Assembly (NCBI GenBank): GCA_040954595.2
Contig: CM082576.2
Location: 7,567,129 to 7,631,128 of the forward strand
Origin: Balanoglossus misakiensis
Lineage: Eukaryota > Animalia > Hemichordata
DNA length: 64,000 nt
Reading direction: 5' to 3'
Shown here: in pieces, positions 21,661-55,800 of the stretch
How the letters are laid out: the number at the start of each line of letters is the position of its first letter
How positions within the stretch are numbered: the stretch's first letter is position 1
The notes under the pieces: model-generated
The model's database searches: none
What the model saw: only the letters and a program-made list of their open reading frames with translations
Told to the model about the DNA's origin: nothing
Translations under genes and position numbers: made by a program

Positions 21661-22387
21661 AGTTAAGTGTTAAGATGCTGATTGAACTGAGATCGAAAAG
21701 CAAGGTTGACAGTACCAGGCAGCACATGTACCAGTACATACAGAAAGAAACTTCAGAAAATGGCGCGGAGGTTTAGTTAGTTTGAAATTTCGTTTCGCCA
21801 ATAAATTTCGGTAAGGTTAGGAAGAGGGCGCTTGTCTTTTCGTGTCGTTTTTGTTGAGTGTACTTTCAATGAATACAAGTCATGTTTACAATGTAAAGTG
21901 ACCAACGAAATTTATATAAAAAAACACGAAATCGCTGAATTTTATCTTCCAGTCTTCCCAAAAAATTATCGCAGTGAAATCATACCAAAAAAGTGTGCTG
22001 GCTCCAATTTATCCACAAGAGAAAAGTTTATAAAAGTTAAAAGAATATAGGAAATGTTACCAAATCAGGGAAATTGTGAACAGACTGTATCACAAACAGT
22101 GATACTTTTGTGTCATTGACTGTTTCGCAAGTTGAACGGTAAACACAAATAACAACACCGTTTACACAACAAACGACGCGGTAAGAACATCATGAGAACG
22201 CGGTATCCATGCCAACATAGCATGTGACTTTAATGTTCTATTTGTGACAACAAGAGATTCCAAACTTTCTGTGAGTGACAGACAGACGTGCCTCCTTGCA
22301 GTATCGAGAGAAACTGAGAATTGTTGCGAACTTTCCGCTTGCTCGAATTTTTCCAAGGCTTGCATCTTACATCTTGGTTGTTCAACA

Positions 22388-23098: not shown

Positions 23099-25239
23099 AA
23101 CTGACATGCAACTTTAATAGAAGAATGTCTGACGTGATGGCGATGCCTTTTATAGACAATATTTGATTGAAGACAATAGCCAGTATTGTGAAATTTCTTA
23201 CCATATATACACTTCATATATACTCATACTTTTTTATTTATAACCATTTATAACTTGGTTTATTATTTACAGAAGTATATCATTATTTATCCCATATTTA
23301 TTCTTGTCATATGAATTAAATTTTACTGTAGTTACGATTTCTGTTATTTTTTCTTCAAAAACTATAACAGTACTTGGTGATCAGTTGAACATCAGTGAAA
23401 GAAATACCTGATAATTTATATTTGAAACACGAGTCTCGAGATATTAATTAATGAAGAGAAAAAAAAGAAATCCACAAGCCTTGCTTTCCCAATCCACAAA
23501 ATCAAATTTATTCATACATATGCCACGTTTTATATTACAATCAAATGAATGCCCAAAACTACTAATGAAAACAATCTCAAACCATACCTGAGAAAAATGC
23601 CCCCCCCCCCCCCCAACAAAACTAAACAAACAAATAAAACTTGTAATAGCTGCCTACAAGAACATAATAAAATACTTAAAATAATTAACTGGCTAATGCC
23701 AAAATATAATGTAAAAATACGGCTGTCTAGTTCAACTGTAGTGGAGTAAGGTGGTATCCTCGTTATTAAACTCTCATAATCATCTAGTTTCAGTTTTTGT
23801 CTCTCACAGCAGCTGCGCAGTCTGCAAATATCAATGCCCTGTTCCCACAATGCAACAGGCAGTGGACCCCCAACAGTGCAAAGAAAAAACAAACATGACA
23901 TGACAGTAAAATGTACAAGAATTTGAAATGCTTAGTATTGGAACACATTTGATCACACCCTTAAGAAAACTAAAGGTATTCCAACCTGGACATCAACAAA
24001 TAAAATGGCAATGCCCAAAACCTTTCTTTTAAAACTGAAAGAAAAAAACCTCAAAGAAAACTACGTCACAAACTGCTCTACTACATACCACTAATTCAGC
24101 CAAAACTTAAAAATTATAGGTATACACACCATGTGGGTTATTGAAGATATATTTACATTTTGACCTCGGCTGACCTGCGACCTTTGCATGTCAAGGTCAC
24201 ACTCGGCCTTCACTTTTATTAAACACACAGGAGGAAAATTGGAACAAGGGCCCTGGAAAAAAACACTGGGCAATTTCCATTGAGAAAAATGCACAGTTAT
24301 GCATTGACATCGCAAGTGAGAAGTATGATTAGGGTACCATCGAAAGGTGAAGGCATCACCACTCAGAAAATACTTAGCTTTAGGTTTCCATGGCAATGTT
24401 CTTTTCTCCGAAATCTTCGAAACCAAGTAAATGACAATATTTTTTTTTAACGAATACCCGTACACCCTTACTGGTATTTCAGGAGATTTTGACGAATAAA
24501 CCAACTTGGCAGTGGATAGGATGAAAGGTGTTTAATCACACTAATGCCACATGATATTTATAGAAATTTGAACAAATTTGAACACTGTCCACGATTTTGA
24601 ACATGCAGGGAAAGCTGATGAGCTCTCAGAAAAATTGTATTTCGCGTATTCATGCGGTCCATTTAAGATTTACATATTAACAAGAATAGAGGTGTACGTA
24701 TGGCATACAATCCAAAATATTCACACTATTATTTTAATAACTGGTTAATTAATTAATTACTTAAATGCCCATGCTCTGCTTTGACTTTTCTGTAGTCTAT
24801 CATTTTCGGTCCCAATAATAATGCCGCTATAAGATTCTTCTATTTAGTCTATACATGGAAACCGGTAAGATTTTATGACCGATTTCATTGATAAGCTTGA
24901 TACTTTTTGTTAAAAAGGTGTGTATAATTTCAAAAATGTCAATTTTGTCATCTCTCATCACTGGTGTAAAAAATGTACCACCTCCCCTCCGGTCATCCCA
25001 TTTGGTACTTCCCCCCACTGTGACCCCCTCCCCTCAACCCTCTTCTGCCACCCCCCTTTGCTACTTTCCCCCACTGTGAAAGAGTAATGGTATTTCTGGT
25101 GCTGGTAAATCCACTTAGATAAAAAGTAATCCGGAGTGTCTGTCTTCTGAATATCCAGACCATTCAAACTGTGATCCGGACGTGCATGGTGATATGCTTG
25201 GGACACATACAGACACTGGATCTGCCTCCCCGGATCAGC

Positions 25240-28200
25240 TCAGTACATCTGGATGATGGCGTCCCTGGATTTTCCCACTCCTATCCACTTGACTGGAATG
25301 AAGAGGGGGAAGAAAATAACTGAGTTGGCTGCAAATGTATATTGCAAGTCTTCTCAGCACAGAATTTTTTTTTTCTGTTTGGTAGGGGAAAGGTCAGGGT
25401 ACGCTATTGGTGTTGATATTAGTGATAGTGAACGTCAAAAATTAGGCCTACAATGCATATGAATTCATGAAATAATTATACATGAAATGTGTACACAACG
25501 CCTGTCCAAACATGCTGTAGCTAAAACTTGTGTACTCAAGTCTCAATCAATGAAAGCAATGACTTCAAACCGTGCATATTAATGTTATGGTGTAGGTGTA
25601 TTTTCTTTCCAATGTGAATTTCATGTTCGACGGCTACGAAAACAGGCCTTTGATTGTCGCACTTACTTGGAACTCCCAGCAGCTCTTCAACTTTCCGGAT
25701 GTAATTCTGAGCATTGGGAGGAAGATCGGAGAAATTTCGCACTTTTTCCGTGCTGGTCTGCCAACCTGGAAGTGTGATATACTGGACCTCCAGTCCCTTG
25801 ACGATCTCAGGGTCAGCTGTGACAAGAAAAATAACACAAACAAAATTACAAGGTCGTTCACCTATAATTGCTATTGGATACATAACTCAGACACTTAGGG
25901 TCTGGGTGATTAAAAGTTTGGGTTGTTTTTTTTATAAGTCAAAATCAAACTATAAAAGAAAATTAGATGAACAATGGTTTAAAATGTTTAGCATGAAACT
26001 AAACAAGAAGAGATAATTTTTATTTCCGTAACTAACCTGGGAAAGATGACAATGTTTTGCCTTTGTACTTGTAGGCATAACCAATTTTCACTTCTTCCAA
26101 TGTATCCATGACATCCAACTTTGTCATACAAAGTCTAGATAAAGTATGCAAATGGTATAGCATGAATCATTGATAAAAAAAACCCAGCCAGGATGGGTTC
26201 AAAGGTCACACAGGGGTCAAACAATCAACAAAGCCCACACTTACGCTGAGTATCCATTCAACATGTGGGAATACTTCAGCACCATGGTGTCCAACCAACC
26301 ACATCGACGTCGACGTTTCGTCGTTGCCCCAAACTCTGCTCCTCTCCCCTGCAGTAGGTCTCCGATGTGCTGCAGGGGTAGAAGAAAAGAAGTTTAGAAA
26401 GCTCATCATGTTATATCAGAGCGAGGGTGCCACAAATATATTATCGTGATTGGATGAGAACCTGTTTTCATTAATGCAAGCCAGGATTAAATTAAGCATC
26501 ATCCCCATACTTCGTTAAAATTCCAGAAACATAGTTCTATTTTGCCGATGAAGATGACACATCCATAGTATGTGAACGACAGAACCAAAAAACTTACATT
26601 GTCTTGCTCAGTCGGCAAGTGGCCTTCTCCCACTCTGGTGGTGTACGCTTTGAAAACACCGATCACATCTCCGACTTTCCGGGGCGGAATTCCCAGACCC
26701 GTACAGACGCCGCCAATGGAACAACTGGAGGACGTCACATACGGATATGTCCCTGTGTTGCGTAGACGGGAAATAAACAGATGGGTTTTTACTGGATGTT
26801 ATCTGAGAGTTGTTGACCATCTGTGCAGTAGAAGGTTGGCGCAAAGTAAAGGGCAACGTCGTGTCTGCTTTTGGTGTTACTACGGTTATTTTTAAAGCGA
26901 GTTATTTCTGTCCTTCATCTCTCACAGAAATGCACTATATTATTTGTATTGATAGTTTTTTTTCAAGAAAGAGTGAGAAATGAGTCAAATATTATGTCTA
27001 AATGGAGTTTCTAAGTTGGGACAGCCCGGTCCTTGAGAAAAGCAAACAAACACTTGAGGCTGAAGTTTATTTTGCAATAAATTCAGTAGGCCTGCCATTT
27101 TCTTGTATCCCTCCTGAATTTGAAATGACAGCTCTACATCATCATTAGACTTTGATCAAAATTAGATAACAACCAATTTGCATGGCTTCTGACTGTTGTA
27201 TAAACCGTTCAGCTGATCACTGTCTAGCCAACTGTCATTCTAAAACAACATTTTTTTAAACACTTTCACACGGATAGAATATATGTGGTCATGCAGGAAT
27301 CATAGTCGGTTGACATGTACGACCGATATGAGTAGGGGCGGTACTTACCGAAATCAATATCCAACATGGTGGCGTTGGCACCTTCAACCATGATTTTCTT
27401 AGACGGGTCATTGAGGGCTTCGTATAAATAGTGGACTGTATCTCTCACCAGTGGCCGTATCGTCTCTGCATACACCTGGGAGAAAAAAATACAATAAATT
27501 TTACTTTCACAACAATACCTCCAGGAGAGTTGGACAATCTTTACGAGCTGATCACAATGAAGTCACCTTGATAACAGGCCATGTGATAAATCTGTATGAG
27601 CATTCAGACGTAGAGGCGTGGCAGCGTTGGTTTTGATATCTGATGATCACAAAGGCTTTTTAAAGAGACAAAATGAAAACATTTCTCGGAACAATAGACG
27701 GCCTGTTTTGGGTACAATGACAATACTGTGTAGACTTGAAACCAAAACTTTGACCCAGCAAGACTTTGGCAAACCTATCTTCATGTGTGAGAGCAAATAC
27801 AAAACTCCAAAACTGCACCACTTACTTTATATTTGCTCAACTCCTTGTTCACATCCACGTCAAGTTCGGGAAACAATTTTTGGTACATCTTGATCAAATT
27901 TTTCAACCTGTACAGTACAAATATTAAAATGTTTTAGGTACATTTTCAATTTTACAAATATTATCCATGCGCTGGCTTTTCTGACAATTTCAATCAGTTC
28001 AACCAGCATTATAAACTCGCTTTTACTGTCAAATGGTCCCAGTTCAAAAGAGGAAGACTTACTTCGTAGAGAACACTTCAAAGTCTCCCAATAAATCACA
28101 TATCCTAATCCCGCTTCTGCTGGCTTTGTTGGAATAGGTGGGGCCTATACCTTTCTTGGTGGTTCCAATACTGCAAAGGAAAGCAAACGTTTTCCATCAT

Positions 28201-31200
28201 CAGACAAATGTGTCTCTTTCTACAGAATGTCCAACGGCTTGACTTTAGCCCTTTCACCCCCAGTTCCCTCTTTAGAGGTCCAACCTCACCACAGAAAACC
28301 ATGGGTTTGGACTGAACCATGGTGGTGAAAGGGTCAATCAACTCTAAAGCAGTCATTGCCAGAAAGAATCCGCTAAGATGCAACCTGTTGCTATTGGTAA
28401 CCGTGACAAAGTGGGTGTCTCCCACAATGCACCCTGGCACAATCAGCACATCTATCTTATTAGCCATTCAAGGATAGCAGGAATCTTTTAAAAAGTCAAT
28501 AAAATATAAATGTTCTCTTCTGACAAGCAGAAATCAATACACCAGATGTTAATAGCTGAATAAGTTCCTGTTCATTGTAAACACAACAGAACCATGCCAC
28601 ATTAAAAACACCACTATACAAATGAAGAAAATGCCTGTTTGTTTAACATAATCTTTTATGTTCATTTTACATAACAGCATTTCCAATCAGACATGATTTA
28701 GTTTTGTTCTCCATGACGGCTAACAAGAAATCATCCCTGGGAAATAATGGCGGATAAAAATTTGAATAGCATGAAAGAAACTCACCTGTTTTTCCCTTTG
28801 GCTGTCTCCTGTAAACCGTCCACTTGTTGATGGAAGTCAAACACTGCACACAAAGAAATAAAACTGGTGATCAATAATGAATAATCCAATTCATTGCATT
28901 TTACCTCTTTGTGGGACAGGATATATAAAAGTTGTATTTGATATCAAAATTGAAGTCATCAATGAATTAAAATTTAACACAAAAACAGGATTGATATCAT
29001 TCCAGGGAGAAAACAGACCACTTGTTTTCGAATGGAAGGAATGAAACACTGTGTAAAATTGGATAAGACCCCAGTTCTGAGTTGAATAATTAAAGCAATT
29101 AATAATGGATGCAGCAACACTAGTTGTATGATGATGGACACAGCTAACACACATTTTTGCTTCCCACTCGCTGGTAACTAAGACTGTAACAAAAGAGCTG
29201 CTTGCACTGAATGGCTTCTCAATGCCCAAGTTCTTGTAATTAGCTCAGCAGAGTTCAACAACATAAAAAGACAAACAGGTAGATGATTAAACGATTTTTT
29301 TAAACACTAGTTTTCAGTGATACGACAACAACTATTGGGAATTGCGCTTCCTTTAATCCTTTCAATCGTTAATTCTTATCGTATTTCCTACGTTAAATTT
29401 GAATTATTTTTACATTTGAACTTTTTAGCTTGCACTGTAAGACGATGACATTTCCATATTTCAATTCCCACAACAAAACAGGAAAGTAAACTCTTCCATC
29501 TTAAGACTTACCAAGATGGGCACGGTCAGAAAGTATTAGTCTCTTTTCCCAGTTTTCAATGTTGTTGTTTTTCAGCTCATCAAAGAGTCCAGGTAGATGT
29601 ATAACAACACCGTTGCCTGGGAAACCAATTGAGAAAACAATTTTTTCGTTACATGCATAAGAAATGTACACAGACACCAATTTCACAGTCACGTGTATGT
29701 TGAACATTCACTCCCATGCAATTCCATGAAACATACGTTACCTATCACGTTGATGCAGTTTTCATTGATGAATCCACTGGGCAGCAGATGGAATATGTAC
29801 TCCTTGCCACCGGCCACCACTGTGTGCCCTGCATTGTTACCACCCTGCAATTCAACGAGACGTAAAAATATCAGACCACCAAGTCCGAATGTTTACCACA
29901 GCGAAGCGTTTTGTTAAAAAGATTCTACATCTTCTTCAAGAATCTCCATACTAAAAATAACAACAAAACAGTTCACATCAGGTGGCAAAAACTTTTTTTT
30001 ATTTTAATGATACAGATACGGAATAAATTCTTACTTATTGATGGCGGATTTTGAATACGCCCCATTAAAAATTTACATTCACAAATATCCACCACATAAT
30101 CTGTGTCTGTCTTTCCTGTCACGTTCGACATGTCATCACATGTAATCCCTTTCACTCTCAATGTAATTATTATAATCCATTCACTTTTCATAACTTCACC
30201 ACTATTATAGTGCAGAATAATTACAAACCTTCCTGACAAAGAGGAAACACCAAACAATGGAATCACAGGTACATTATGATTTTTCTCATAACATTAATAA
30301 TGCCATACTGTGAACCCTTTCAACCCAATTTCCTGTAAAGCAGTTCCAACTGTACCATAATGAGTTCAACGAAACTAGGACGGTAAACTTCAGGGGGAGG
30401 GGCAGTCAATGACACTGACATGTCTGGGACCTAACCATTACGTGTACTGGTACCAAAGAAGTTACCTGCAGAGCACATAATAATCTTCCCCAATTTTTTT
30501 TATGGTCACAATTGATTACATTCTTTTTAACAGACATTTACAGCTGTTCTTATAAGTGCTTTTATGCCAGAACTGAAGTAAAGAGAGAACAATTTTGTTG
30601 AAGAGATCCAATGTTAGCAAACAAAAACCTGGCTGACCAATATAACTCTACTGTTGACTTTGCCACGTACAAGAGAAATGTTTCTGAAACATTTTGTACA
30701 TCAAACCTAGCAGTTGACTGTTGGGTTTTTTACAAAGGCAGTTTTTCATTAATTGAAAAAATACACACGTAATGGTTTGTGAGAAGTTTAAGTCTCCAGA
30801 ACTGACCAGCCTATCTGACGATTTCAGAAGTTCAGACCCAACAAATGATTCATAAAGACACTGCATAAGGATCATGACTGCCTGCATCAGACAATGTTAC
30901 TTTAGTACATCTTCCCTGGTAGACTTTTCACTGCATTTAACAAGCAACATAACAAATACCCTACACAATACCAAGAGTCTGACAGTTATATAATCTGGGT
31001 TGGAAACCGCAATGCATGACAATAAGAAGAGCCACGGACTTTCATTATGACTGTACACTCATTTGCAAAAATGTCTATTTGACAATGTTTGTACACAAAT
31101 TCAATGTGGACATACAAAATAAGAATTTTCTGGGTGTTGAAGCACTGTGTAAGGCCATGGAGGAAGAATTTAGAAAGGAACGTTATATTAGTGTCTCCCC

Positions 31201-31993
31201 CCCCCCTTTTTTTTTACCTCCATGGTAAGGCGTAGCCTTGCCTGGCTGCAGTACCGTGGTTTTGCCTGTGTAGGCTGTAACTGTAACCCCCCCCCCCCCC
31301 GCATCAGCAAAACAGAGTCAAGGCACTGTAACTAGGGCAAGACGAGCCGGGGGGGGGGGGCTGGCACAGAAAGCTCTCCTTACAACTATCGGTCAGACGA
31401 GATATAGTCGACGCTCGAAATCGTCAACTATCTATCTATCGATACTATATTAATGCTATAACTAGTTACAGCTCAGCTTAGCTAAAGGTCAGCGATGACA
31501 AGTACATACTACGTCATCTTGCACTCGCCCTTTCCCGGCGGGCCGGTTTCCATGTATGGATACCGGGTACCGGGCAATTCGCACGGATAGATGATCGATC
31601 TGCAGCCATCACAGGTTCCCCGAGTTACCCCAACCCTACCCTCCCATCGGCTGGTACCAATTTCATGAAAATAAGAAGACCAGCACGCCCTAATAAAACT
31701 CGATTACCGAGTACCACGTGCAGTATTGGGCACGTCATCCACGAGTGTTGCGTGTTGCATGTTGCTGAGTGGATATCGAATGGAATACATACCGCACACC
31801 GACAGACCAGATCGGCCTCTTCGGCAAGCATATCCACCACTTTACCCTTGCCTTCGTCGCCCCACTGGCAGCCGATGATCACGGACACCTTATTTGGTAC
31901 ATCTTCCTTCATTTTCTTCCTCAGATGATCGTTTTCTGTGATGCCGTTTTCGGTAGGACAACTCTTTGTACTTGCACTGCCTGTGGCCGCCAT
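25240..31993 (-). CDS. ADSS: Adenylosuccinate synthetase (PurA family); 12 coding exons
   Basis: Exons 31993-31793 ([15 protein letters not shown]-loop), 29844-29742 ([10 protein letters not shown]...FHLLPSG), 29616-29512, 28843-28786, 28170-28063 ([12 protein letters not shown]), 27907-27826, 27475-27349 ([14 protein letters not shown]), 26752-26598 (TYPYVTSS...[10 protein letters not shown]), 26369-26245 (RRRRCGWLD), 26134-26037 (TKLDVMD), 25816-25667 (LPGW...LPPNAQNY) and 25292-25240 (WIGVGKSR). Start chosen at AAGATGGCGGC; an in-frame upstream ATG at ~32077 is possible. Confidence 0.97.
28246..28336. mobile_element. Copy of the ~90-bp piggyBac-like MITE, in an ADSS intron
   Basis: TTAGCCCTTTCACCCCC...GGTCCAACC...GAACCATGGTGGTGAAAGGGTCAA, with near-identical ends to 7992-8084. 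Confidence 0.72.
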
Positions 31994-33549
31994 CTTCGCG
32001 CGTTTAGTAGTGTTCGAACCCGGCTGCGATGCGCCTGCGCTGCTGCGTGAAGACTGGCCGTCATTGACCCACGACATAGTGCGTATGTCTGCTAATTTAT
32101 TCACTCCCCCCCCCCCCCCATTAATGATCGGTAATAGAGTTGGCTGTTCACAATACCCGTTTTTAAATAAAAACAAATGAATATAGTATTATGGTAAATA
32201 AAAAAATTCGAATGCATTTATTGATAATGATAAAGGGCGTGGTACGGGCCATGTCGTGCTTTGAAGAAGTGAATTTGTTCTTGCCAAAGCTTGAAACACG
32301 ATTTAACATTACCGGAGGTTTGGGAACGAGAGCGATTGATTTAATTCGTTAAAATTAACAAATAAATTCATTTTTAAAAAAGTGCCGATGAAGTTGGAAG
32401 AGCAACTGGTGAAAGTAAGTCCCATGATAATAAACAGAAGAATTTGATTGACTTTGTTTTTCTGGGGAAAAGTATCTTACACATCATAACCCACCTGTTA
32501 ATTTGTTTATATGAATTGAAAAATATTATGACTAAAACTGCAGGGTTTTTATATGTCACTCTAAATGGTCTACTTTCACTATTAGGTATTTTCTGTGGAA
32601 CGGGACAATTATTACCACAGCCGATATAAACATGACCGTGTTTCCGACAGTTTAATCGTAAAACAGTGAATTTCGACAGTACTTCCCCCGACGATGTCCA
32701 AAGGTTTACACATAGGCCAAGTACGATGCGCTTAATTTAATTAAAATAGTTGTGCTGTAATGTCTGTGATTAGAAATAGCAGCTATCTGCAGTGACCAAA
32801 CACTGCTCTGCACTTACAATGAAAAACTATGTCGATGTCGCCATTCTTTTCGGAAATGACGACAGCAGCAATGTTCTCTCGTGATATCAACTGTTTCCAT
32901 GACGACTTATTCCGGATGTGTTTTTTTCCAAACGTCATCGGTTTATATTACACAATGATTTGCATGGCAGTAACTAAAGAATCAATACAAAATCACGATA
33001 ACATAAAAGGCTGGCGATTTTTAATTATTTAAATGAGTACATAAGGAAATACGAATTGTTTTGTGATTCCTGAACTCTACTAACGACGGAAGACAGGAAG
33101 CCAAAATATGAAAGCTTCGGCATAGCATTTACTGTATATATGTTTTGTGTGTCGAAAGTGATACGAGTAATTTCATTTTAGTGTTCACATGTCGTGAATC
33201 TATCTTTCTGATAGTCTGAACCTGCTGGTCATTAGAATATAGCTTTTGTTGCCTTTATTTCATGTTTTATTTCGTTTTAATTGTTAAAAAACATACTCAT
33301 GTGCCGACGTGCGTATGAGTTTTTTCCATTAGATGTACCCAACCAAGTGTGGTCAAAATATACCGTGGGTGGCGCTGTAACTCCGACTACATGGATGCCA
33401 TAGATGCAACAGGTGTGGACGTCTTTCACCGAGACAATGAAGAAAGCACTGGTGTTAATATCACCCGCTGTAATAATCTGAAATTGTTCACCAGCAGAAA
33501 TCTGATGGTATCATTGTTGATCGCAACTTTCACATCATGTGACACGCAG

Positions 33550-34166: not shown

Positions 34167-36947
34167 ATGTTGCGAAGTGGACGTACACGTATGAACATTG
34201 CCTTTGGCAAGCAGGCTGTCGGCCTGAAGAAGACACAGAGCGATATGAAAATGGCGACTGATAGAAACGCCACAAAGCCGGTGAGTTTCTGAACAACTTT
34301 TGTCGAATGTTCCGGGTTATACAGGGAAAAATAATCGAGCGCAGTTTCTTGACATGGTTTTAAATTAAAGCCTCTACTTTCGTGACAGTGTATAATACGG
34401 GCACGTCTCGTACTTGTGAACTATAGGCAGTGTTGTCTAGATCTGCATTGCACAGCCGGCAATTTTCCTCGACCGACAGTAGATTTGTAAAACGTTCTCT
34501 CTACGTTCTCGTTCATGCAGCAGAGGCGAGGACCGTTTTCTATCACCAACCTACCCGCCGCCGAAGTCGAGAAGAAGAAACCATTCGTCAGACAACAAAA
34601 TGGTTGTGTTCAGAAATCATTCAAACGTGAGTAACATTTAAATACCTCGATTGGTCGTGGTTTTTCACCCCCTGTGAAAGTTGACTTGTTCAATCATCCA
34701 CAAGACTTGCACATTTTATTGCATTGCATGTATATATTTTTTGGGAATGTTTTTACCGAATATCAATTTCCCCGCCAGAAACCAAAGATGTTGAAATGCC
34801 CTCTGAATCCAGGGATGTCGAAATGGTAAAGGCTCGCTCCGATGTCACTCCTGTTGCCGTCAGCCGTCCTGTTGACAAAGTCAAATCATCGCCAAAGTTC
34901 TGCCGTAACGCCGATAGTACAGACGTCGATTTCGCCGAATATGCTGATGACGTATACAATTATCTTAAGGTGAGACTGCATAAAAATTGGTTGTGTATGA
35001 AAAAGATGCATTTTCAGAAATCGTTCCAAATTGTGCGATATTATATTTCAAAGCCAGTTTTTGAACTTTCAGAAAGCCACACCCAAGTATTAAACTTTCT
35101 CTCGGCTACTTGTAATCCTATATGCTTGGGTTCAGCGTCGGACCGAATCGAATTTTCCCTTTTCTGCACGAGTAAGCCTTCTCCGCAGAGTCTCGACATG
35201 ACCTCATTCCCTCTCAAATCTTGTACATCCACGCAGCGAATGGAACACAAGACGTGTCTGCCTGACACTTTTTTGAATGGTGACAACGATTATACAAGAC
35301 TGAGGAGAGCCATTCTTCTGGACTGGGTGATTCAAGTACAGGTAGGCCTAACGCATCATTTTTAAGTTTCCCATTTTTCATTTTCTTTAAGTGCCTTGGC
35401 AATTGCCTTCTTACTAATCATTCAATCGTTCTACATGTATTTCACACCCCAGTGCCATTTGCATCTACATGATGAAACTCTCCACTTGGCCGTGACCATG
35501 ACGGACAGATTCCTCAGCCTTGCTACCGTCCCTCTCGACAAGTTGCAATTATTGGGCGTCACCTGTCTTCTGGTCGCTTCTAAGATTGAAGAGAGGTACC
35601 CTCCCGACGTAAGTATATGGACATCGTCTCCTAAACCCATATCGGCGTGTACCTACAGATCTTAAATTTAGATTTTTTTTGTCGTCACTTCAGTGTGGTG
35701 TTGCCAAGGATTTTAGCCTAGTATATTGTATTCTTTCCCCGCAGGTGGAGATGTTGTGTTTCTTGACCAACAACACCTACAAGAAATCTGCCGTGTTACA
35801 AATGGAGATGATCATTCTGAGAACGCTGGCATTCGACTTCTGCCTCCCAACGCCCGTGCAGTTTTATGATCTCTACACCACTTCCAAGGCTTTCGACGTT
35901 TCTGACGAATCTAAAGCAGAAGTAAGTTTTCCAAACGCCTGCCTATGAACGCCACTTTTCCTCGTGATCAGTATAGTTGATCGTTGTCCTCATCGACATT
36001 TTTTCTGAGTAATGATTAATATCGGAAGGTTAAGATATAATTTGATATTTGACTGTTTGGAAGTGTTTGGAAGTACTTGGAAAACGATATATCAACTTTA
36101 CACCTCACCAAGGTGCTTTTCTTTGACGAGTACTCGGTTAACGAACAATATATTGGCCAACGTCTTTTGGAATACATGGACGTAAATCGCACTCTGGCTA
36201 TATAATATCCCTTTCCCGACTGCTGACTAACCAGACCCCGTATCTTTTTCAGATGATGAAGAATCTTGGAAAATACATACTGGATTTGGGCATTTGCAAT
36301 AAACACGTCTTGGCTATCCCGCCTTCCCAGCGAGCGGCAGCGGCCCTGGCATTGGCCACTAAAATACTGGCGGGCAACAATACGACGTCATCTCCCGCCT
36401 GGACACCTGCTCTTGCCAACACCACGGGATATGTGGAGGCGGCATTGTTGCCTTGCATGGAGATATATGCCACTCTACTGGCTAAAGCTCACCGCTCCAA
36501 ACAACAGGTACGACATGGTATTCAATATACCTGAAAATGTTGCATAAAGTAATAGTACATAAAGATCTCGCATCCTTGAGAAAAATTTTGAACGGCTAAT
36601 ATTGTCTTAAGTTAAAAAGCTAGACAATTTTAAGGTAGCTCCACGCGAGTTATTAATTCAAAATTGCGAAAAAAGATGCACCAACTAAATTCGCCCCGTA
36701 GTTTTTAGGGGGACAACTTGTAAACGATGCAAATTTGTTGCCCGACTTTTGGATGTCGCGCTTATAAATTTTTCTATGCCTCTCCAGCGAATGTACTAGA
36801 TTCTCACCTTCCATGTTTCCCGTTGCATTGCAGGGCGCAAGAGCGAAATACAGCAGCATCTCCGTTTACGGTGGTTTGAGTCAACTACCACTCGTCACCA
36901 AATCCCCAGTGGTCAGACAGTTGGTCATGGCGGGTGCACAGGTTTAA
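34167..36947 (+). CDS. Divergent A/B-type cyclin (possibly cyclin P/CNTD2-like)
   Basis: Exons 34167-34280, 34521-34626, 34779-34969 (EYADDVYNYLK), 35237-35341 (RRAILLDWVIQVQ), 35453-35608 (ETLHLAVTMTDRFLS...KLQLLGVTCLLVASKIEERYPP), 35745-35921 (LTNNTYKKSAVLQMEMIILRTLAFDFCLPTP), 36253-36507 (PPSQRAAAALALA...WTPALANTTGY) and 36834-36947. Both cyclin boxes are present and the frames are consistent. Confidence 0.92.
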
Positions 36948-38277: not shown

Positions 38278-41200
38278 TCAAAGTGTATTGAGGCAAGCAT
38301 GTTGCGGTTCGGAACTGATAAATTTTTCACATTCTGCTTCTGTGAGTAACCTCGCACAGAAATCGGTATCCAACGGACGAGGTTTGCTCAGTTTTTTCTT
38401 CTTTCCTTTTGACATTTCATAAAACTAGAGGGAGCAAAAAAAAATTAAAATTAGAGATGAGAGTGTACAACAAAGTTCTAAAAATTGATGTACTCTAACG
38501 CATGGCAAGAGATCAATCCCACTATCGATAGTAATAATTGAACTGGTGAGTGAGAGGAAAAAACTGCACTGGTGGACTTACCTGTAGGTTATTGTTTTCA
38601 CACACTTCAAATTTATATGGTTTTTGCTTTTGTCCACTTCGACGGACAACACCGTACAGGCTGAACTGCTGACCCGAGTTCTAATGATGCAAAATGGTGA
38701 CACCAAAACTTTTTAGAGCAACATATACCGGTAGTAAGAGCAGAAGTAAACATCGTAATTTACATGCTACCGGTACTTGGCATGAAAGTAAAGTGTAATT
38801 GTGAGAACTATGAAAACATTAGATCACTGGTCTAGTCTTTTCAACTCGTGATATGTCACAGCCGTACCTCGATTTGTTTGTGTGTTCCCCTCAGATTCAG
38901 ATACACCTTTTCAGATTGTGACTTCCCTGAAGCTGCTTGGCTCTTGTGTTTTCTGCTGCCCTTCCCTGTGAGAAAAAAATGAACACCACAGTGACTTCAA
39001 GAGCCAAAATTACTCTCTTCAGACCAGTATAATTTTCTGACAAGAAAACCAGACCACAAGCAACAACCATCTCACCTGATGTTCTTGATGACGAGCTTGC
39101 TCTGGAGTCTGTAGAATCTCTCCTTTGTTTCTTGGATGTTGGATGGAGTAGATGCTGCAGCTGAGTGGAATTTTCTATCGACTTGGCAATGCCTTTTCCC
39201 TTGCTCTTTGAGTTGGCTGTAACTGGCTGTAGCCTTTCAACTGTCATGTCACAGAAGATGAAAGATGAACGAGTGAATTCAATGAACTAAAACGTTTCTT
39301 AATTTGGAGTGTTTTTTAAATGTATGAAGTGATGGACAGGCACATGCTACTTAGTAGTTTAACGTTGACCAGGGACACTAATTTTTACTAGCGCCACCAA
39401 CAACCAAAATGCAGATTCAACTAGAGCTTGAGTCTCTTTCCCGCATAGCACTTTTTATCTGCTGTTTCATTCTAACTTCCTGTAAGATGTTTGTTGTAGG
39501 TGACTCCAAGGATGCTGACAAAACCCACTCACCTTCTTCATCAGAGAAAGTTCCCAGAGTTTCTTTGCTCCTGTCACTCTTTCGCTTATTTTCATTTTTG
39601 TCCCTGAATTCTGACGCCACATATCCATTTGCATTCTCCAACCTTTTTGGCACCTGTTGCAAAACAATGGAATATACACGATAAACTAAACCCTGTTTAC
39701 CTTATACATTTCTAGCACACATAAAAGTAATTATAGATAAGATGAACAATTAAGTTACCTTTGACATGCATCTTCTAACTAAGGCAACGACTGAAAAATA
39801 AATAGGAAAGTTTGAAGTTAGAATCCTATCAACATGAAACATAGAGACTGGACAGAGCTCTTTTATACTGTTTCTTACATACCGGTACACTCATTTGAGT
39901 GAAATTTGTTCCATAACAATGCAACAAAACACAATGTGGAAGTTATACATGCGGCTGTTTTCAAGTGTTTTGCAGTAGACACACACACACACACACACTG
40001 GCTGATAAGCTCTGTTGCCATTGTGAAGATTGTTATTTCATGATATACAGATTTATTGCAATATTACAAGGGTTGCCTGAGATCTACAGAAACATAAGTG
40101 ACCTGTGCAGAGAGAGAAGGGGCATAGCTTTTATGGTTAGCTCGTGTTTTTCCCCCACATAGATGCTAAGAAATGCTCACCTAGAAGAAGTAGAAGGAGT
40201 ATTAGTGTTGCTAGGATACCATGGATGTGAGTTAAACTAGAGAAGTCATGCAGTGATTCTGCCACCAGTGTTAAGTACTGCGTAACTTCATTCAATGTCT
40301 GTGCTGTGCTGTCAGCTACCTGATCCCGGCTGTCATCGTTGTCGTGATTTCCATTTTTGGAAACCTCTGCTTGCCCGTTGCTCTCTGTTTCACAACTGTC
40401 CCTTTCACAGTTTGTACCCTCCTCATTACGAGTCTGTTCTGTTTCTTCACTATCGACTTCATCCTTTGTCACTTCAGTCCTGAGCACAATCTCTACCAAG
40501 TAGCTATAGTTGTGGGGATACTGATAGACCAGTGAATGACTCCCTGGGGATCTGACATCCTTACTCAAATTTGTCTCTAACAAGTCTCCATAGAAACCAG
40601 CAAAGTATCTTCCCTTCTTGCCTTGGGCCATTTCATTCTGAAACAGCAAAGAACCGGCATTTTATTCCTCAGATTTAACACATTGGCATAGTCACGTTAA
40701 GTCTAATTTTACCTTCACACATCGAAACTGATCGGTGACATAGTATATTTGACACAATTATTGACCATCATATTTCTAGGATTTTCTGCGCTTACCACAT
40801 CATGGAACCACGCATCATATGGCTGGTTTTCCAAACAGGTCATGAGAGGTTTATTGCAGGGGTCCTCTTGATTGATGAATGCTTGGTATGACACTCCCAT
40901 CTTGTTGCACTGGCTGCCATCAGTGACAATGTCCGACTTGTTCACCACTAAATATTCATAAGCACCAAGCTAGGAAAACAAGAATTATGGATGCTTTTAG
41001 ATCATCAAATTTGTCTCAAATTAAAAGTGCTACTTGGCAAAGGGGATTATTATCAAACTTCGTTATAATGAAGTGTCCAAATCATTCTTAATATGCATGC
41101 AAAAATGTAAATACAGGTTTGGTACAACACATTTACTTACTTGTGTTTGAGGGTCACCTGGCTGGACAGTGGATGATGGGTCTGGTATTAGAACTACTTT

Positions 41201-43228
41201 GTCTCCAAAATTGATTGGAAAGAATAAGTCCACATTGCTGTGTTTCTCGGCGTAAGTCACTGTAACCCGAAACTTGAAACAAAAATATGGGGGAGGGGGG
41301 TTAGCTGTATCATATTTGGGGGAAACTTGAGATCGATCAAAGCGCTTGCATGACGTGAATTTGGCCAAAAATTAGGATGTTTTTGCAAAAAATATATATA
41401 CATACTGTTTCATTATTTTTAAAGTGTACTGGTTGCGTGATTCCAATTTCCACATCTTTGATGAAAAAGTCCTCTATCTTAAATCCTTTTCCCAGACTGT
41501 TGTCTCTGCCAGTGTCGACATTCAGCTTAATCATGTGTTCTATTCTGGGTTGTCCAAGTTCATACACTTGATACCTGGTGTGAAAAAAATAATGGTCAGT
41601 TCATGTGTGAGGGCGCCATAACCTCATGACACCAAACTTCAGTTGTCAGAGATTACGAGTTTTGTTAGGGTTAAACACACACATCTTGAAATATAAATGC
41701 CTGCCTTGAATGGAAATGGGAGATGAAGTCATTTCATCTGTTTTCCGGCATGTCTCAGCATCTTAGTCATGCATACCTGATATGTCCAGGACAAGTTTCT
41801 GAAATCGTGACTGAAAATGAATTTTGACCTTTCAAAGGTACACGTGAAGTCCACTTCCTTAACAACATCAGAATCTATGTTTGAAACAGTAATGAATGGA
41901 TGTCACTTTATTTCCTTCAATCCCTAAATGCACTTACCAGAGATCATCCATCAACAGACAATGTGTACTGGCGTGGTATGCGTCATGATCTGTGATGTGA
42001 TCTGGTGTCTCAGTGCTGGAACAGTCCTGGCCTCCACGCGTCTGGTATTTCGAGTCCTCCAAATCTTGGCAGTGACAACAAAATCCCTGTGTAGATGGAA
42101 GAACACAAAGTAATTAAAAGCCACACGTTTTTTTTTTAATATCACAGAGAGCTGTTGCCAAGAAATTAATCTCCTACAAACAGCTTATTTACTGTGCATG
42201 AAGCCACATCTGTAAATGACTGATCTTTGTTCTGTCAAAGGCTAAACCTGACCTTTGTGATTTGGTGCGATTCTTGAGATGTAGTAACCTTTGGCCCGCA
42301 ACTGCCAGGGTTACATCCAGTGTATTGTCTGTCGTTGTCTTTGCTGATCACATCTTCATATGCATAGTTATTTACCATCTGCAAAAGAAAAATAATAATG
42401 GCATTGCAGAACCTGAAACTTACATTGCTTATTCACATTACAAGTGTAATGTGGAAAAGATAGTCAACAAGTTGCCATCATAACCAATGTTGATTGAAAT
42501 TTTCCTGTTTTCCAACAAGCAGAACCGTACAGTGAATGAAATGTTCAATAAGTATTTACTTCTCATAATTTTCAACCAACCTTGCCAGAATATCTCAATG
42601 GATAGTTTACAACTGGAGACGACAGCTCATCTATCATAATCTCAATTGGTCTCGACAATGTAATGAACTTTTCAGTTGACGTATCATAGACTTCTGGGAT
42701 AACAATGAAATCTTTCACAGCACTGTGGTCTTCCTGAAAAGTTAAGGACAAGATTGAATAATGCAACTTCTGGTCATCTCCATCCCTGACCAACTTGAGG
42801 ACCCCCCCCCCCCCCAAAAAAAAATGTTCTCTCTCTCTGACCTTTGTAGTACTTTTTTTCCAGACAGCCAAATTGAATGACATTGCGAGGTCTTGCTTTA
42901 GTCAGAAATCCAGTGAATTAACTAGGTGTCGAAAAGGACTAACCTTCGTGGAAACTGCACTAACAGTAACATCCTTGTTCTTGACGATCCTGCTCTTGTT
43001 GGTCGTGGAAGTCGCATTCAACGTGACAACAATGATGTGTGTCGAGCCCGTCGTCAGCAACTCCGCCGTTGTGTGTATTTCGGTTTCGTCGTCGTTTGAT
43101 CGCAGGGTTGTTCGGTGAAGGTGGACGCACATTATTGTCCATGAGAATATTAAGATCGTTAGAAAAGTCTGCTTCGCTGAGTAAGTGGGCATCATCACCC
43201 GCCGATCGCCAAACTCATAGAATCTCAT
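38278..43228 (-). CDS. HAP2: HAP2/GCS1 (hapless 2) class II fusexin homologue with atypical architecture, ~769 aa
   Basis: Exons 43228-42944 (N-terminal hydrophobic segment), 42733-42581 (VYDT...LSRPIEIMI...VNYPLRY), 42378-42253 (MVNNYAYEDV...C...C), 42086-41938 (GFCCHC...TRGGQDC...STHCLLMDDLW), 41574-41406 (YQVYELG), 41272-41141 (DKVVLIP), 40969-40796 (DGSQCNKMGVSYQAFINQEDPCNKPLMTCLENQP, the HAP2/GCS1 signature), 40637-40181 (ends in TM GILATLILLLLLL), 40102-40068 (least certain), 39653-39533, 39240-39076, 38965-38868, 38680-38582 and 38424-38278. The exons sum to 2310 nt, in frame. Confidence 0.9.
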
Positions 43229-48938: not shown

Positions 48939-48997
<59 letters not shown>

Positions 48998-49079
48998 CCA
49001 CCACACTCACCATCACCATCATCATCATCATCATCACCACACTCACCATCACCATCATCATCATCATCACCACACTCAC

Positions 49080-49177
<98 letters not shown>

Positions 49178-49945: not shown

Positions 49946-52853
49946 CTTTGTTCTCATCCGATCGTTGAGGGCGCTCACCCCGAAGACGACTATGCTTTTG
50001 TTTTTGCACTGACTCTTACGCATGACAGGTAACTTTTTGGATCACGTACAAACGGAATCCTTCCCTTTGGAAGAGGCCTACTAGCCCCTTACAAAAGTTA
50101 TCTACTCTCTAGACAATTCGACATCAGTTTGACAGCAAGCAAGCTTTGTGTCACATTATATGTCCTCACACCAGAAGTGAGCGCCCCTTGTGCAAAATTA
50201 CTTTTTATCTGTCCATTTCCAACTAAGATTTTGTTGTAGACTTTTTTCAAGAAAAGACACAGTGTGGTATCCTTCTTCTGTATGATTTTTTACGAGTAAT
50301 GATGTCTTTCAAAATCCATTGTGCTGCTGAGAACTGTTTCCCTTCTGTCTTGCATCAAATAGTTTGTCTGTCCTTGAAGAACTCGCTTTTTTGTTCACCC
50401 CCGGAGGTTAATGTTCATTCTTAGCCTAATTGCCTCGCAGTTGCTAGTTATTAGGTCACGCGGCCTGTTTTTACTGTGACAGATAGCAATAAACCTGCCA
50501 AAACCGTGTGACCTAATAGCAAACGACTGTGAATATTGTCTACGTGTGTGACATGACACCTGTGCGTGTCTCACCGTCAAGTCAAGAGATCAAGTCCATC
50601 TGAATTTGTTTAGTTTCCATTTGAGGACGCAGTCGAGCATGCAGTTCGGGTTCTGGTGTCTGGAGATTACAGCTGTCGCTCTTCAAACTTACCAACGCGA
50701 CCAGAATAGACAATTAGGCCACGGGTGAACAAAAAACCGAGATATCACCAAGGACAAATTCTGAACTATATTGGGAGTGCTCCATTCTTCGCGCCTTTAT
50801 TCGCCAATACATATGGGTTGCATCGCTTTGTCATCATTTCATATCGGTCTGTATTTCAAAGTTTGAAAAAGACAATAAAACCTTTAGTCTGCTTCCAGGT
50901 GGATTTTAAAGATATACGTTATTGGCCGAAGTTTAGCAGACGTCATGAATTTCTCTTTAAGTGATATTGATCTTGTTCATTGTACTGGAATAGTGGGAGC
51001 GACAATGGGATGGTTTCAGGTCAGGTTGTAACCATACAAGCTATTATGACGGACTTGCTAGACCGTGCACCGTATTGTAAGGCTAAGAGCTTCTTTTCAA
51101 CAGGGCGGGCAGTTTAACTGTCTTCATTAAAACGTAACGGAGGACAGACCTATCTTTACTCCACTGGTCAGAAAGCAAAGTGACGTGAACTGTTTTATGT
51201 CACGCAAGCACTTTCGATTAAAACAAGTACTTGAAGGCAACACAAAATGTAGCTGCAATCGAATGGCAAGACTTGATTAGAAAACCAAGCCAGTATCACC
51301 AGAGATAATAGTTTACTAATATGTCCGACGTCCTTGGATACAGTTGCACCGGCGCCGTAATTATAGGAAGAGTTTCACATGTGATGGATTTGCGCCTAAG
51401 GTAAAAGCCTAAATATGTGCAGAAATGCGCCACAAGATTGTTTAAGCCTCGGATGAAGCACCCGTAAAAACGGGGTGAAGTCAAGTTGGCCTTGAAAGTG
51501 ATACGGGCGATGGCCAGAAAAAACTCTTACAAGTAAACGCATGTAGCTGCAACTGCCATCCCGACAGATACTCAGAATCTGTCCTTCAAATCAAATGCAC
51601 CAAGTAAAACATCATTCGGAATGATAGCGCAGTTGGGTCGTTTGATATCGGGGTATGGAAGATTGACCCTGGTTGGCAGAAGAAATTAATAATGCCACAT
51701 CATCAATCTTTCAGACGCCGGGTATCCACCACTCTGGTCCTTATATGGAAAGAAGACTACTTCTAGACCCCAATGATCAACGAAATGTTTATAAATGTAT
51801 TAGTGACTTGAAAATTCGTTGATTTTGAAAGTGGACTTGATTTATTGGAATGGGGAAAGTCTCGATAATGCTCACTTTTACTGCTCGACTTTACTCTGGT
51901 TCTGCGGTTTATCACGAAAACTTATCAAAATCGCCAGTTCACGCCCTCAGGCGGTTGAAAGATTCAGAAGGAAAAAAAGATGGAGGGATGCTTGGGGTGT
52001 GCGTCTTCAGCCTGGCTGACAGAAAAAGGTACGAAAAGAAGCTAGAAGGTATACCCTCCACGTCAGTTGACTGCCCTTTGTTTATTTTGATGGTTATGGA
52101 CCACCTGCAGGTCACTATCTTCACATTTGGCGACCTGCCAAGTCACCTTTGAGACGGGGCAATGGCCACGAGTTTCATCAACGGAGAACATTATCCTCCT
52201 CATCCTGATATCTATGCAAATATGGTAATGTCAAAGGTCGGTGCGTGTCCGAAAATCTCGACCAGGCGGCTGAACCACGGAGCTCTGCAGCACAAGGTGA
52301 GCGTTCCAGCAACTTTCCTGGTTTCGGTCGAATTTCTACGTAAACCCGGTGCATTTTAAAGCAGAAATAATGCTTCAGTGTGGAATGCTTTGAATGCGAA
52401 AAAGTTTGCCGACGTGTGAAAGTTTCTTCGGACGAAGTTTTACCTTTTTACCGGCAACTCCCCAGCGCACTTTATGGGTTGTTGTACTCTACATTCTGCT
52501 ATCTGCTTCTGTGATCTGGAACACTTTGTACCGGAGAGACAGTCTTTAACATTCTTTTGGTCAAGTGACCCGAACTTCGCCCTATTTTAACCATCTCCGG
52601 TAAATTGAAGTCGAACACAGTAATACATCTGTTGCCATTTTCGAGGCATTTTCTGAAAGATACATTTCTTTTTGAAGCTAAAAAACAAGACGCACTTTTC
52701 TTTGACAAAGTTCTACCCCCTCCCCCATTCCGTGGTTTGTCAAATATCCCGAGTCTTATCTTTCAAATTCCATTCGGACAAAAATCAAACCAGGTAATTT
52801 ATGGAAGCGAACATTCTTTTTTCCTCACTGCAATTCTTTTTTTGACTTTCAGC

Positions 52854-55800
52854 ATGTCGGTTCATTGGAAAGTTGCGGTCGTTGCCATTTTGTTTGTGAC
52901 GAGTCAGGCTGCATCTGAAGATCAGGTAAGACCCGGAGATAAGCTACAGTTATGCAATGTAACCGATCACAGATCAACAGATTACAAAAATGTCAAATAT
53001 TATTCTTTTAATTGTTTGACACAGGAAAGTTTAAGCAAAACTTAAAGGAAGACATTTTTCATCCCGTACTAAAACACTGATCACTTGGCCAATTCTCTGT
53101 GCATTTAACCCTTTTTCTTCTGCTTCTCAACCAGAACCCCCTATACATAAAATCCGATGAACAAAACTGTTTTATGTAAGCAGGAAGCTAAACAAAGCAG
53201 GCATTAGTTTCCATAAAGTTAAATGGGGGAAAAAAAGCTTTTCAAACATAGTGAGAATTGTGTTTCATATGAGTCAGCTCGTGTTGTCAGCAGTCATTAC
53301 TTCAATCACTGGTACTAGTACTCTTTCCAACTTTTTTTTCATTCATTGTCTGCAAGACTTCCTGCTGGTTTCGGGTATTCCCATTGTTCTGCTCTTCAAG
53401 TTCAAGGCAGTTTTTCATGCCGAGTGGTGTTCCTTTGTTGTTTCTCGGGGATGCAGTGTTAATCCGAGCAAGGCATGAAGTGTGGTGAAGGGCCCGGCCA
53501 CAGATTAGGAAACAGTTGTTTTGATTGCAATTTGAAATGAGATACACCCTCTCATACAGACAGCTGCTGGTGTTTTGGACTTCCATTGTTAGGTTGATAT
53601 GGCTTCTCTTGAAGGGCTGCAATGTGATGTGTAAACACAGTGAGTAGGAATGACCGGAAACCTAGCATTGTGTCTGCTTCTTGCCTTTCAAGTGGTAGTA
53701 CACTTGTCATGGTGACCTGGCCCGGCCTGCTTACATACGTGTCCATGGTCTTACTGAACTTCAGCTTGGTCCCAGGATTATTAACTTTAGGTGTTTTGTT
53801 CTTTCCAGAAACAACAGTTGGGGAGGGGGGACAGAAAGATAAAATATTTCAACTGTGATTTAATCTCTTTAAATGCTCAGAAAATCAAAAGTTAACTGTA
53901 GGGACTGTGACTGTATTCAAGAATTCATTGAATTCTACTTTTCCGAAAACTATTGTTTTAGCTTGTTTATGTACTAGTTTTTTGGTAGTAATTGGCCGAA
54001 GGAGTTTCAGCATTGTAAATGCTGATATTTTCACTGTATTATAATTAACCTATGGAAGGTCAATTACCAGAACTTTCTCAAATGCAACTTGCAGAAGTAA
54101 TATGTGTACCCACCCAACCTTCTGTTTAATTAGTCCATTGTAAATGATTTGTCAGTCAATTAGACCACAGGCCCCTCTGGCAGATTTATGGGCGCTGTAT
54201 TTGTTCAGTGAGATGTAGGTCAATGGTGCTGAAATTCCTGTGGGACTGTAAGCAAACTGGGTGTTTTGAGTTTTTCCTCTAATAATGGCTAAAATGTTAG
54301 CCTTGAGGCGGAGGCTTTTGTTGATTGAGTTGGGTAAAGTATTTATGTACATTTAGGCGTGTGTCTGAACCCATTCCAGTGTGACGTTAAGGGGATGGAA
54401 ATTCCTTGCTTCATTTTAATACGATGGGGTGTGATTTGAGGAGAGGTAGAGCATTCAGGTTCAAGAACAAATTCGAAGAAATTTCGTAATTCTCATCATG
54501 TCGGTGATGTAATTATGCGTTTTGTAATCGCCATTGATCAAATATTTGTCACTTTGTGGAGTGCCTGGCGTATAATCTAAATCGTTTGACTCGTTTGACG
54601 TGGCGATGGCCCTGAGCTTTTAATAGCTTTTAAAGATTTAAGAGTGGGAGTCCTATCATGGTTGTAAATTTGCACGGTTTCAGCGAAATCCTTGAGGCCT
54701 AGGGTCTTTAAATTCCTGGGACATAGTTGAATTCAGAAATCTTCCAACAGGTTGCACATCGTAATTAAGTCGGTAATCTTTGAGCGATGACCTGTGGATG
54801 CCTAATAGAGCAGGACGGGGGAGATAATTGCGATACCGAGTGTAAATACAAAACATGCAAGGGATCTAGTTGTGTCAGTTTTATCAAAGTTTTAAGGCTG
54901 ACTTTTTTGTGTCAGCGGCTGGCTCATTGGCATGGGTATGGTGTCTGAAGAAATGAATGAAAAGGAAATTGTTCGGCCTTGTCCAGTAAATTATAGCCAG
55001 GACGACATTCCTTAGGTGACCGCAGAGGGAAATGCAAATCGTTTCGGAATAATGATCGAATTGTAGTCATCTACTGCCAGTATGTATGACTCAAAGACAA
55101 AATTGGACTGAACCCAAATAATTCATGGGATGACTTATTTGGTTGATTCAAAGTGTTAAGAAATCTGGTATATACAAACATAAGATTTCAGAGTTCAAAT
55201 TGTGTGCACGCTCCATATCCAATATTTCATGGTAGATAATGTAATTGTGAATTCCTCGATGCAGCATCTTGGCCAAAAATAGTACAGGAACATGTTGGAA
55301 GGTACTGCCTGTTGTTGATTCTGATCCAGTTGCAGTTGAGATATAACCCTTGAAGTTCTCAGTTTTGTTCTTTTATGCTGTGGTCTTTTGAAATGGAAAG
55401 TTCTACACCTGACACCTTGTCTCACCTTAAATCTCTTTGGATTGTCTCTTCTGGAATAGAATGAGCCAGAAAAGCCATATATTATGACTGCAGCCAGCAT
55501 ACCTATTGGATTCCTATTCATGGTGTATCAAATTTGATAAGAAATTGTGAAATCTATTGCCCCCAAAAATATGATCAAGAGATCTGTGAAAAGAACATTC
55601 GAAAATTGGCAATCCCTCCACTCAGGAAATATTCTTAAGTTTTGTATGTATTTGTAATCTAGAACAAGGCTTGAACAAAACCGATAAAGTGAGTCACTCA
55701 GAACATTGATCCAATTACAACGACCTTTATTTTTTGTAGTTCATTTACAATGTCAAGGTTCTGTGAGGGAACTCCCATCATTTACCTTTGCATTCCTTGA

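Follow-up and report, generated by a model that had tools for sequence, protein, structure and literature searches.

In class II membrane fusion, domains I and II of the fusion protein trimerise and bridge the two membranes, and domain III folds back, clamps the trimer and draws the membranes together (PMC5332557, PMC6327110, PMC9279424). This fold-back is required for lipid mixing by viral class II proteins, and blocking it stops the reaction (PMC2171229); in HAP2, domain III clamps the trimer (PMC5332557). A trimer core is still formed by Cyanidioschyzon HAP2 from which domain III has been removed (PMC9279424), and, as a caution, nanobodies directed at Plasmodium domain 3 are reported not to block transmission (PMC12905498). 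The presence of HAP2 in hemichordates has already been published (PMC5332557, PMC9279424, PMC13601591), and a Saccoglossus accession is listed in the resource table of PMC6327110. In this study, the HAP2/GCS1 gene of Balanoglossus misakiensis was analysed; it lies on the minus strand at positions 43228-38278 of a 64,000-nucleotide stretch (GenBank assembly GCA_040954595.2, contig CM082576.2, positions 7,567,129 to 7,631,128), which is called the window below, its product being called the window protein. This protein and its orthologues from Ptychodera flava (an 811-residue NCBI model, P0001) and Saccoglossus kowalevskii (LOC102804021; XP_006821859.1, XP_077868997.1) are all missing the immunoglobulin-like domain III.

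The three hemichordate proteins depart from the family alignment right after the last strand of domain I. A domain III profile was built from 32 canonical proteins and 156 proteins were scored with it, 15 bits being taken as the threshold for a carrier. Thirty-four proteins were excluded, 2 having no core score and 32, mostly fragments, no downstream membrane segment; one of them, a full-length cockroach model, was also without a domain III signal. Domain III was detected at 15 bits or more in 111 of the 122 assessable homologues (32 of the 111 being the profile seeds). Of the 11 misses, four were hemichordate rows from the three species, two were short fragments and four had a weak domain III; the last was a protein whose anchor had been miscalled and which had domain III at 37.8 bits. 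Upon scoring of the isolated segment, the four weak proteins gave 12.7-16.9 bits, and the window, Ptychodera and Saccoglossus proteins gave −0.3, −0.1 and −0.5 bits, respectively. Independently, coverage of the 515-position Pfam profile ran to 357 and 325 in the two named hemichordates; in all nine controls it ran to 455-494.

Structure prediction agreed with the profile results. The AlphaFold (AF2) prediction, made from 101 sequences, is of the Ptychodera orthologue and not of the window protein; residues 455-548 of P0001 had a predicted local distance difference test score (pLDDT) under 50, though most rows of the alignment have domain III. Structural alignments of this model spanned residues 25-382 of Arabidopsis HAP2 and 1-288 of alphavirus E1, which we take to be the ends of domains I-II in these proteins. 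The alignment with Fsx1 spanned residues 26-338 only, and domain III of Fsx1 begins at 350 (PMC9259645).

At the DNA level, a single 457-nt exon (exon 8) holds the close of domain I together with linker and membrane anchor; this exon had no meaningful match in PDB and, being unbroken, leaves no intron in which domain III exons could be hidden. When the six frames of the 64-kb window were searched for a domain III exon, the top match, of 7.7 bits at 43665, lay outside the gene on the opposite strand (75.0 for the control profile), and the best domain III signal within 33-48 kb was 0.2 bits. The break point is the same in the three species, two of which are represented by independent NCBI models. 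Domain-III-bearing relatives occur both inside and outside the bilaterian clade of HAP2 proteins to which the hemichordates belong, and the loss is therefore derived, as one change on the tree. Linker length alone was discarded as evidence of loss, the stretch being 133 residues in Ptychodera against a carrier minimum of 137-145.

Where domain III would lie, the window, Ptychodera and Saccoglossus proteins have an acidic linker of 55, 100 and 59 residues with 33%, 30% and 20% Asp/Glu, respectively. The linker is predicted to be disordered, the matching region of P0001 having pLDDT < 50. A Cys-x4-Cys pair is found in the linkers of the window and Ptychodera proteins only, and the numbers of cysteines between domain I and the anchor are 2, 2 and 0 in the hemichordates versus 6-9 in five relatives. 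The linker is followed by a pre-anchor helix with a hydrophobic moment of 0.45-0.52 in the three hemichordates, versus 0.17-0.30 in each of the five domain-III-bearing proteins of the bilaterian clade that were compared, and then by one transmembrane helix, seen as a single hydropathy peak of 2.9. An electrostatic zipper between linker and core was rejected, both being acidic (core net charge −21, −17 and −10 in the three hemichordates). No clear coiled-coil register was found in the pre-anchor helix, with only 5-6 of the 10 a/d places hydrophobic.

The gene was modelled with 14 exons from an ATG at 43228 to a TGA at 38278, splicing being predicted from splice signals and homology. The model confirms the coordinates, strand and exon count that a first-pass annotation, made from the sequence alone, had assigned to an intact HAP2 homologue. 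As that annotation had stated, the splice sites are clean, with GT-AG ends at all 13 introns (105-390 nt), and the gene appears only in fragments in the list of open reading frames, six-frame reading giving HAP2-like pieces on the minus strand from 43228 to 38278. The motifs that it had named, CNK.GVSY.AF..Q...C......CL.NQ, GFCC.C and HC...DDLWY, were all present in a 15-exon draft, exons 2-11 of which are the same in the final model. The word intact is correct for the reading frame, which is single and open over 768 codons across the 14 exons; it does not apply to the architecture, from which domain III is missing. The features are as follows.

42944-43228, minus strand: exon 1, with the start codon, a weak signal-peptide-like segment and domain I strands A0/B0 without the A0-B0 Cys pair (Ptychodera alignment).
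42581-42733, minus strand: exon 2, from C0/D0 of domain I into domain II (strands named by analogy to solved HAP2).
42253-42378, minus strand: exon 3, strand b, in which Glu154 (42357-42355) and two Cys are conserved (family alignment).
41938-42086, minus strand: exon 4, GFCC.C, the cd (fusion-loop) segment, which is polar and acidic, with conserved Arg205 (42038-42036), and the HC motif (PF10699 profile positions 115-154, E 0.004).
41406-41574, minus strand: exon 5, domain I E0-G0 region (Ptychodera alignment, AF2 of P0001).
41141-41272, minus strand: exon 6, from H0 of domain I to the second domain II segment (Ptychodera alignment, AF2 of P0001).
40796-40969, minus strand: exon 7, the HAP2-GCS1 signature (ij loop) with Cys359/376/383 and Gln387 (PF10699; 81% identical to P0001).
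40181-40637, minus strand: exon 8, 457 nt, in which domains I-II end, followed by the acidic linker, the amphipathic helix and the greater part of the transmembrane helix (domain III expected here, absent).
40317-40481, minus strand: acidic linker in the place of domain III (55 residues, 33% Asp/Glu, 7% large hydrophobic).
40236-40316, minus strand: membrane-proximal amphipathic helix common to the three hemichordate proteins (hydrophobic moment; AF2 helix 542-567 in P0001).
39759-39790, minus strand: exon 9, end of the transmembrane helix and basic stop-transfer residues (gene model).
39533-39653, minus strand: exon 10, cytoplasmic tail (Ptychodera alignment).
39076-39240, minus strand: exon 11, cytoplasmic tail, basic and Ser-rich (alignment, composition).
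38868-38965, minus strand: exon 12, tail, beginning of the conserved C-terminal domain (alignment, tail profile).
38582-38680, minus strand: exon 13, conserved C-terminal cytoplasmic domain (tail profile).
38278-38424, minus strand: exon 14, end of the C-terminal domain and stop codon (alignment, tail profile).

The window protein aligned end to end with the Ptychodera model, with 419 of 768 residues identical (core, 231/401; tail, 118/212; linker, 18/60). In exon 1, 23 of the 40 N-terminal residues were identical to P0001, for which AF2 gave a helix at 14-39 and strands at 51-79; the N-terminal apolar stretch is conserved with Ptychodera and predicted as helical, but its hydropathy averaged over 19 residues is below 1.5. 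Introns flank the cd loop at residues 188/189 and 238, positions matching the pattern noted in PMC6089408. The 15-exon draft, which had an extra 54-nt exon and an early exon-12 donor, was dropped, the Ptychodera alignment being suited to 14 exons and placing the exon-12 donor at 38867. The 54-nt in-frame stretch with AG/GT ends (42842-42895, minus strand) lies within intron 1, and the neighbouring intron in the draft was 48 nt; it is a possible minor alternative exon to which the Ptychodera model gives no support. A candidate acceptor lying beyond the anchor exon, at 40103, was also rejected, as the frame continuing the anchor reaches a stop within 16 codons.

Membership in the HAP2 family, which the first-pass annotation had proposed for a bilaterian genome and suggested checking by a PF10699 match and phylogeny, was borne out by both. 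Exon 7 alone matched PF10699 at 66.6 bits (E 2.1e-18; curated cut-off 27.4); exon 4 matched it weakly (E 0.004), and the remaining 9 of the 11 exon pieces scanned singly did not match. The two named hemichordate orthologues, both labelled "uncharacterised" at source, scored 174.5 and 162.3 bits. A protein search with exon 7 gave, out of two candidates, a single protein, P0001, at 81% identity. Word-seeded searches, whether started from P0001 or from a 14-row alignment, yielded P0001 only, reflecting their low sensitivity, since exhaustive search with P0001 gave 384 relatives at E ≤ 0.001. Among the matches listed (the best 150 of the 384), Saccoglossus kowalevskii was at the top, followed by bivalves, nemerteans, spiders and insects. 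Neither a second hemichordate paralogue nor an echinoderm or chordate protein was present among the 30 named clusters (30 of the 150 matches listed), which is weak evidence of absence. All PDB sequence matches with E < 1e-8 were HAP2. Five homologues (P0029, P0042, P0044, P0045 and P0094) have the HAP2 domains at the C-terminus of proteins of 2400-2560 residues, as natural fusions or merged gene models.

A tree was constructed from domains I-II (30 rows, 336 columns; the outgroup did not form one side of a branch, one row being off). The window protein grouped with Ptychodera (99/97) and these were joined by Saccoglossus (100/100); the hemichordates were nested in a 20-row clade containing every named bilaterian (100/100), with two cnidarians as its sister (95/90). 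This placement among animal HAP2s follows species history, and a quick tree of 48 rows was concordant. The stem branch of the hemichordates is long, at 0.83 changes per column. Because of this placement with Ptychodera and Saccoglossus inside the bilaterian clade, the gene is, judged from its sequence, a vertically inherited hemichordate HAP2/GCS1 orthologue, and its conservation against these two species points to a protein under constraint.

Domains I-II are well retained. The window protein keeps 33 of the 34 core columns that are conserved in 80% or more of 45 other homologues, including ten domain II cysteines, Glu154 in strand b, Arg205 in the cd loop and Gln387 in the ij loop. The fusion loops of the Chlamydomonas protein are organised by the residues equivalent to the last three, namely the Glu126-Arg185 salt bridge and Gln379 (PMC5332557). 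The A0-B0 Cys pair of domain I, named by analogy, is found in none of the three hemichordates and in all ten other proteins shown. In the AF2 model of P0001, residues 71-440 had mostly pLDDT > 70, and the top structural matches were HAP2, then Fsx1, alphavirus E1 and EFF-1. The match to 6E18 had a Foldseek E value of 5e-20, and that to 7S0K a Z score of 19.6 with a root-mean-square deviation (rmsd) of 5.7 over 361 aligned residues. The hemichordate protein is thus predicted to have domains I-II with the class II fold. A single-sequence fold (pLDDT 34) was not used, and the ESM Atlas gave no usable match to the whole protein.

The cd loop of the window protein contains no Phe or Trp and 2 large aliphatic residues, with a net charge of −6 and a hydropathy of −1.56. 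Median loop hydropathy was −1.38 in the hemichordates (3/3), −1.29 in the bilaterian clade (12 of 25 readable by pattern) and −0.27 outside it (19/21); hydrophobic moments did not separate the groups. Other HAP2s of the bilaterian clade (P0003-P0009, P0026, P0037 and others) also generally have a polar cd loop poor in Phe/Trp, in contrast to HAP2 from plants, algae and protists.

The cytoplasmic tail is 212 residues long and basic (43 Lys/Arg); its C-terminal part is a domain of some 95 residues encoded by exons 12-14 (38287-38912, minus strand). A profile built from three spiralian tails matched the window protein at 48.5 bits and also Ptychodera, Saccoglossus, other molluscs, nemerteans, the sponge Sycon and one unnamed protein; a few further proteins were matched weakly. 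The last three exons are confirmed by this domain. AlphaFold folds it at pLDDT of about 75-80, and neither a Pfam match nor a usable ESM Atlas match was obtained. This domain, common to animal HAP2 tails and without a Pfam match, is a second lead. Many HAP2s of the bilaterian clade have a second hydrophobic segment about 80 residues past the anchor, which the hemichordates are without.

The first-pass annotation had taken the gene for an intact gamete fusogen, which does not fit a protein whose domain III clamp is missing and whose fusion loop is devoid of Phe and Trp, with a net charge of −6. The reading that we tentatively favour, while giving it somewhat less than an even chance, is a HAP2 orthologue that has kept domains I-II and lost domain III and may act as a gamete-surface tether or fusion co-factor rather than as a self-sufficient fusogen. 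The protein would be displayed on sperm, by analogy with Hydra, in which HAP2 is expressed in spermatogenic cells (PMC2766252), and with other HAP2s. The domain I-II rod, carried on its flexible acidic stalk, would engage the egg surface through the tip of domain II; because the cd loop is polar, the partner would more probably be a protein or glycan than lipid reached by insertion. The rods might trimerise, like engineered HAP2 minus domain III, and the trimer would bridge the membranes with no known means of folding back. Merger would need another component because the domain III clamp is absent, and the tail domain may localise or regulate the protein.

Several points weigh against this reading. 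A polar cd loop is general among HAP2s of the bilaterian clade and hence does not establish that insertion has been lost, and the loop of Saccoglossus has 8 large hydrophobic residues. Glu154, Arg205 and Gln387, which organise the fusion loops, are kept, as suits a fusogen. The linker could reach the tip of domain II, and the new amphipathic helix before the anchor could replace the clamp. In addition, the fold prediction used was made on the Ptychodera orthologue, the gamete role is argued by analogy and the activity from sequence.

The strongest alternative, which we nevertheless consider unlikely, is that the protein is still a sperm-egg fusogen, with the I-II trimer bridging the membranes and the flexible linker allowing the amphipathic helix to zip onto the trimer or to destabilise the sperm membrane, in which it would stand in for domain III and the stem. 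The Glu-Arg pair, Gln387 and the ten domain II cysteines are retained, and the amphipathic pre-anchor helix is present in 3/3 hemichordates and 0/5 domain-III-bearing relatives; the core trimer of Cyanidioschyzon forms without domain III (PMC9279424), and a membrane-proximal amphipathic region has been proposed for HAP2 (PMC6327110). However, lipid mixing by viral class II proteins stops without domain III fold-back (PMC2171229), linker and core are both acidic with no electrostatic zipper apparent, and the window loop is without Phe and Trp. On this view, to which we give a less than even chance, acorn worm gametes would be fused by a natural two-domain fusexin in which an acidic tether and a new membrane-proximal amphipathic helix stand in for the clamp; it would be the first class II fusion protein working without domain III.

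A role outside fertilisation is improbable; in that reading the protein would be a surface receptor or adhesion molecule of the soma or germ line that signals through the cytoplasmic end domain. The long hemichordate stem branch (0.83 changes per column), the joint loss of domain III and the A0-B0 Cys pair, and the conservation of the tail end domain from sponge to hemichordates would suit it, but animal HAP2 expression has so far been spermatogenic (Hydra; PMC2766252). Less probable again is a split fusogen, in which a distinct gene at another site in hemichordate genomes would supply domain III in trans. Stable binding of free domain III to class II core trimers is known, but the free form has no link to the anchor and acts as a fusion inhibitor (PMC2171229), and no domain III was found in the 64 kb of this genome that the search covered. 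Least probable is a decaying relic or an artefact of assembly or gene modelling, for although splicing is predicted rather than read-based and the Saccoglossus models disagree at their ends, the frame is open over 14 exons, the break point is identical in three species including two independent NCBI models, and the end of domain I shares one exon with the anchor.

In the open literature, no description of domain III loss in hemichordate HAP2 was found, only the engineered deletion; subscription papers and theses were outside the scope of this search, and Saccoglossus is included in the figure and supplementary alignments of PMC6327110, which may show the gap. The two-domain HAP2 variant, conserved in three species, is thus apparently undescribed. 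Hemichordates are cited as deuterostomes that retain the ancestral gamete fusogen and chordates as having lost it (PMC13601591). If the hemichordate copy is without the fold-back domain, this citation claims too much, and deuterostomes may already have given up fusion by canonical HAP2, a point of relevance to the identity of the vertebrate gamete fusogen and to the time at which it assumed this role. Hemichordate HAP2 is a natural deletion experiment that makes the rule of domain III fold-back testable in cell fusion. If a two-domain fusexin does operate, it would be an intermediate in the disappearance of HAP2 from the deuterostome line to vertebrates.

Other genes in the window are NUMB (about 6600-15300, plus strand), adenylosuccinate synthetase (24900-32200, minus strand), an ADAMTS-like gene with thrombospondin repeats (52500-63100, plus strand) and MED17 (44564 upwards, minus strand), which shares the HAP2 strand and terminates about 1.3 kb upstream of the HAP2 start codon; NUMB, the ADAMTS-like gene and MED17 are consistent with an animal genome. 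A cyclin-B-like gene (about 34700-36600, plus strand; Pfam Cyclin_N and Cyclin_C) converges on the 3′ end of HAP2 and is divergent, its best PDB match being cyclin B1 at only E 1e-6. A 300-codon open frame between NUMB and adenylosuccinate synthetase (22196-23098, plus strand) had no significant Pfam match. A (CAT)n microsatellite of about 79 copies at 48939-49176 gives rise to spurious poly-His, poly-Asp and poly-Met frames.

Comparison with known systems showed that the Ptychodera and Saccoglossus orthologues have the same organisation as the window protein, with domains I-II, acidic linker, amphipathic helix, one anchor and tail end domain, and are likewise without domain III and the A0-B0 Cys pair. 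The canonical HAP2s compared were those of Cyanidioschyzon (7S0K), Arabidopsis (5OW3), Chlamydomonas (5MF1, 6E18 and 6DBS) and Trypanosoma (5OW4), together with "hapless 2-like" proteins of molluscs, nemerteans, arthropods and cnidarians. The hemichordate proteins resemble these in domain I-II sequence, predicted fold, the Glu-Arg-Gln network, the single anchor and the basic tail, and differ from them in having no domain III, Cys-rich stem or A0-B0 disulfide; their polar cd loop (−1.38 versus −0.27) sets them apart from non-bilaterian HAP2.

The class II fold of domains I-II predicted for P0001 is shared with EFF-1 (4OJC; Z 7.3, rmsd 5.7, 270 aligned) and Fsx1 (7P4L; Z 9.3, rmsd 6.4, 269 aligned), and EFF-1 likewise has a domain II tip that is electronegative rather than hydrophobic (PMC8784728). 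Unlike the window protein, EFF-1/AFF-1 and Fsx1 have domain III. With Z scores of 15.9-19.6 for HAP2 structures versus 7.3 for EFF-1, the window gene is far closer to HAP2 than to EFF-1/AFF-1 or Fsx1 by both sequence and fold score. The ectodomain has the same domain content as the engineered D1D2 form of Cyanidioschyzon HAP2, which forms a trimer core (PMC9279424). This is different from the soluble laboratory D1D2 in that the hemichordate deletion is natural, membrane-anchored and conserved in three species.

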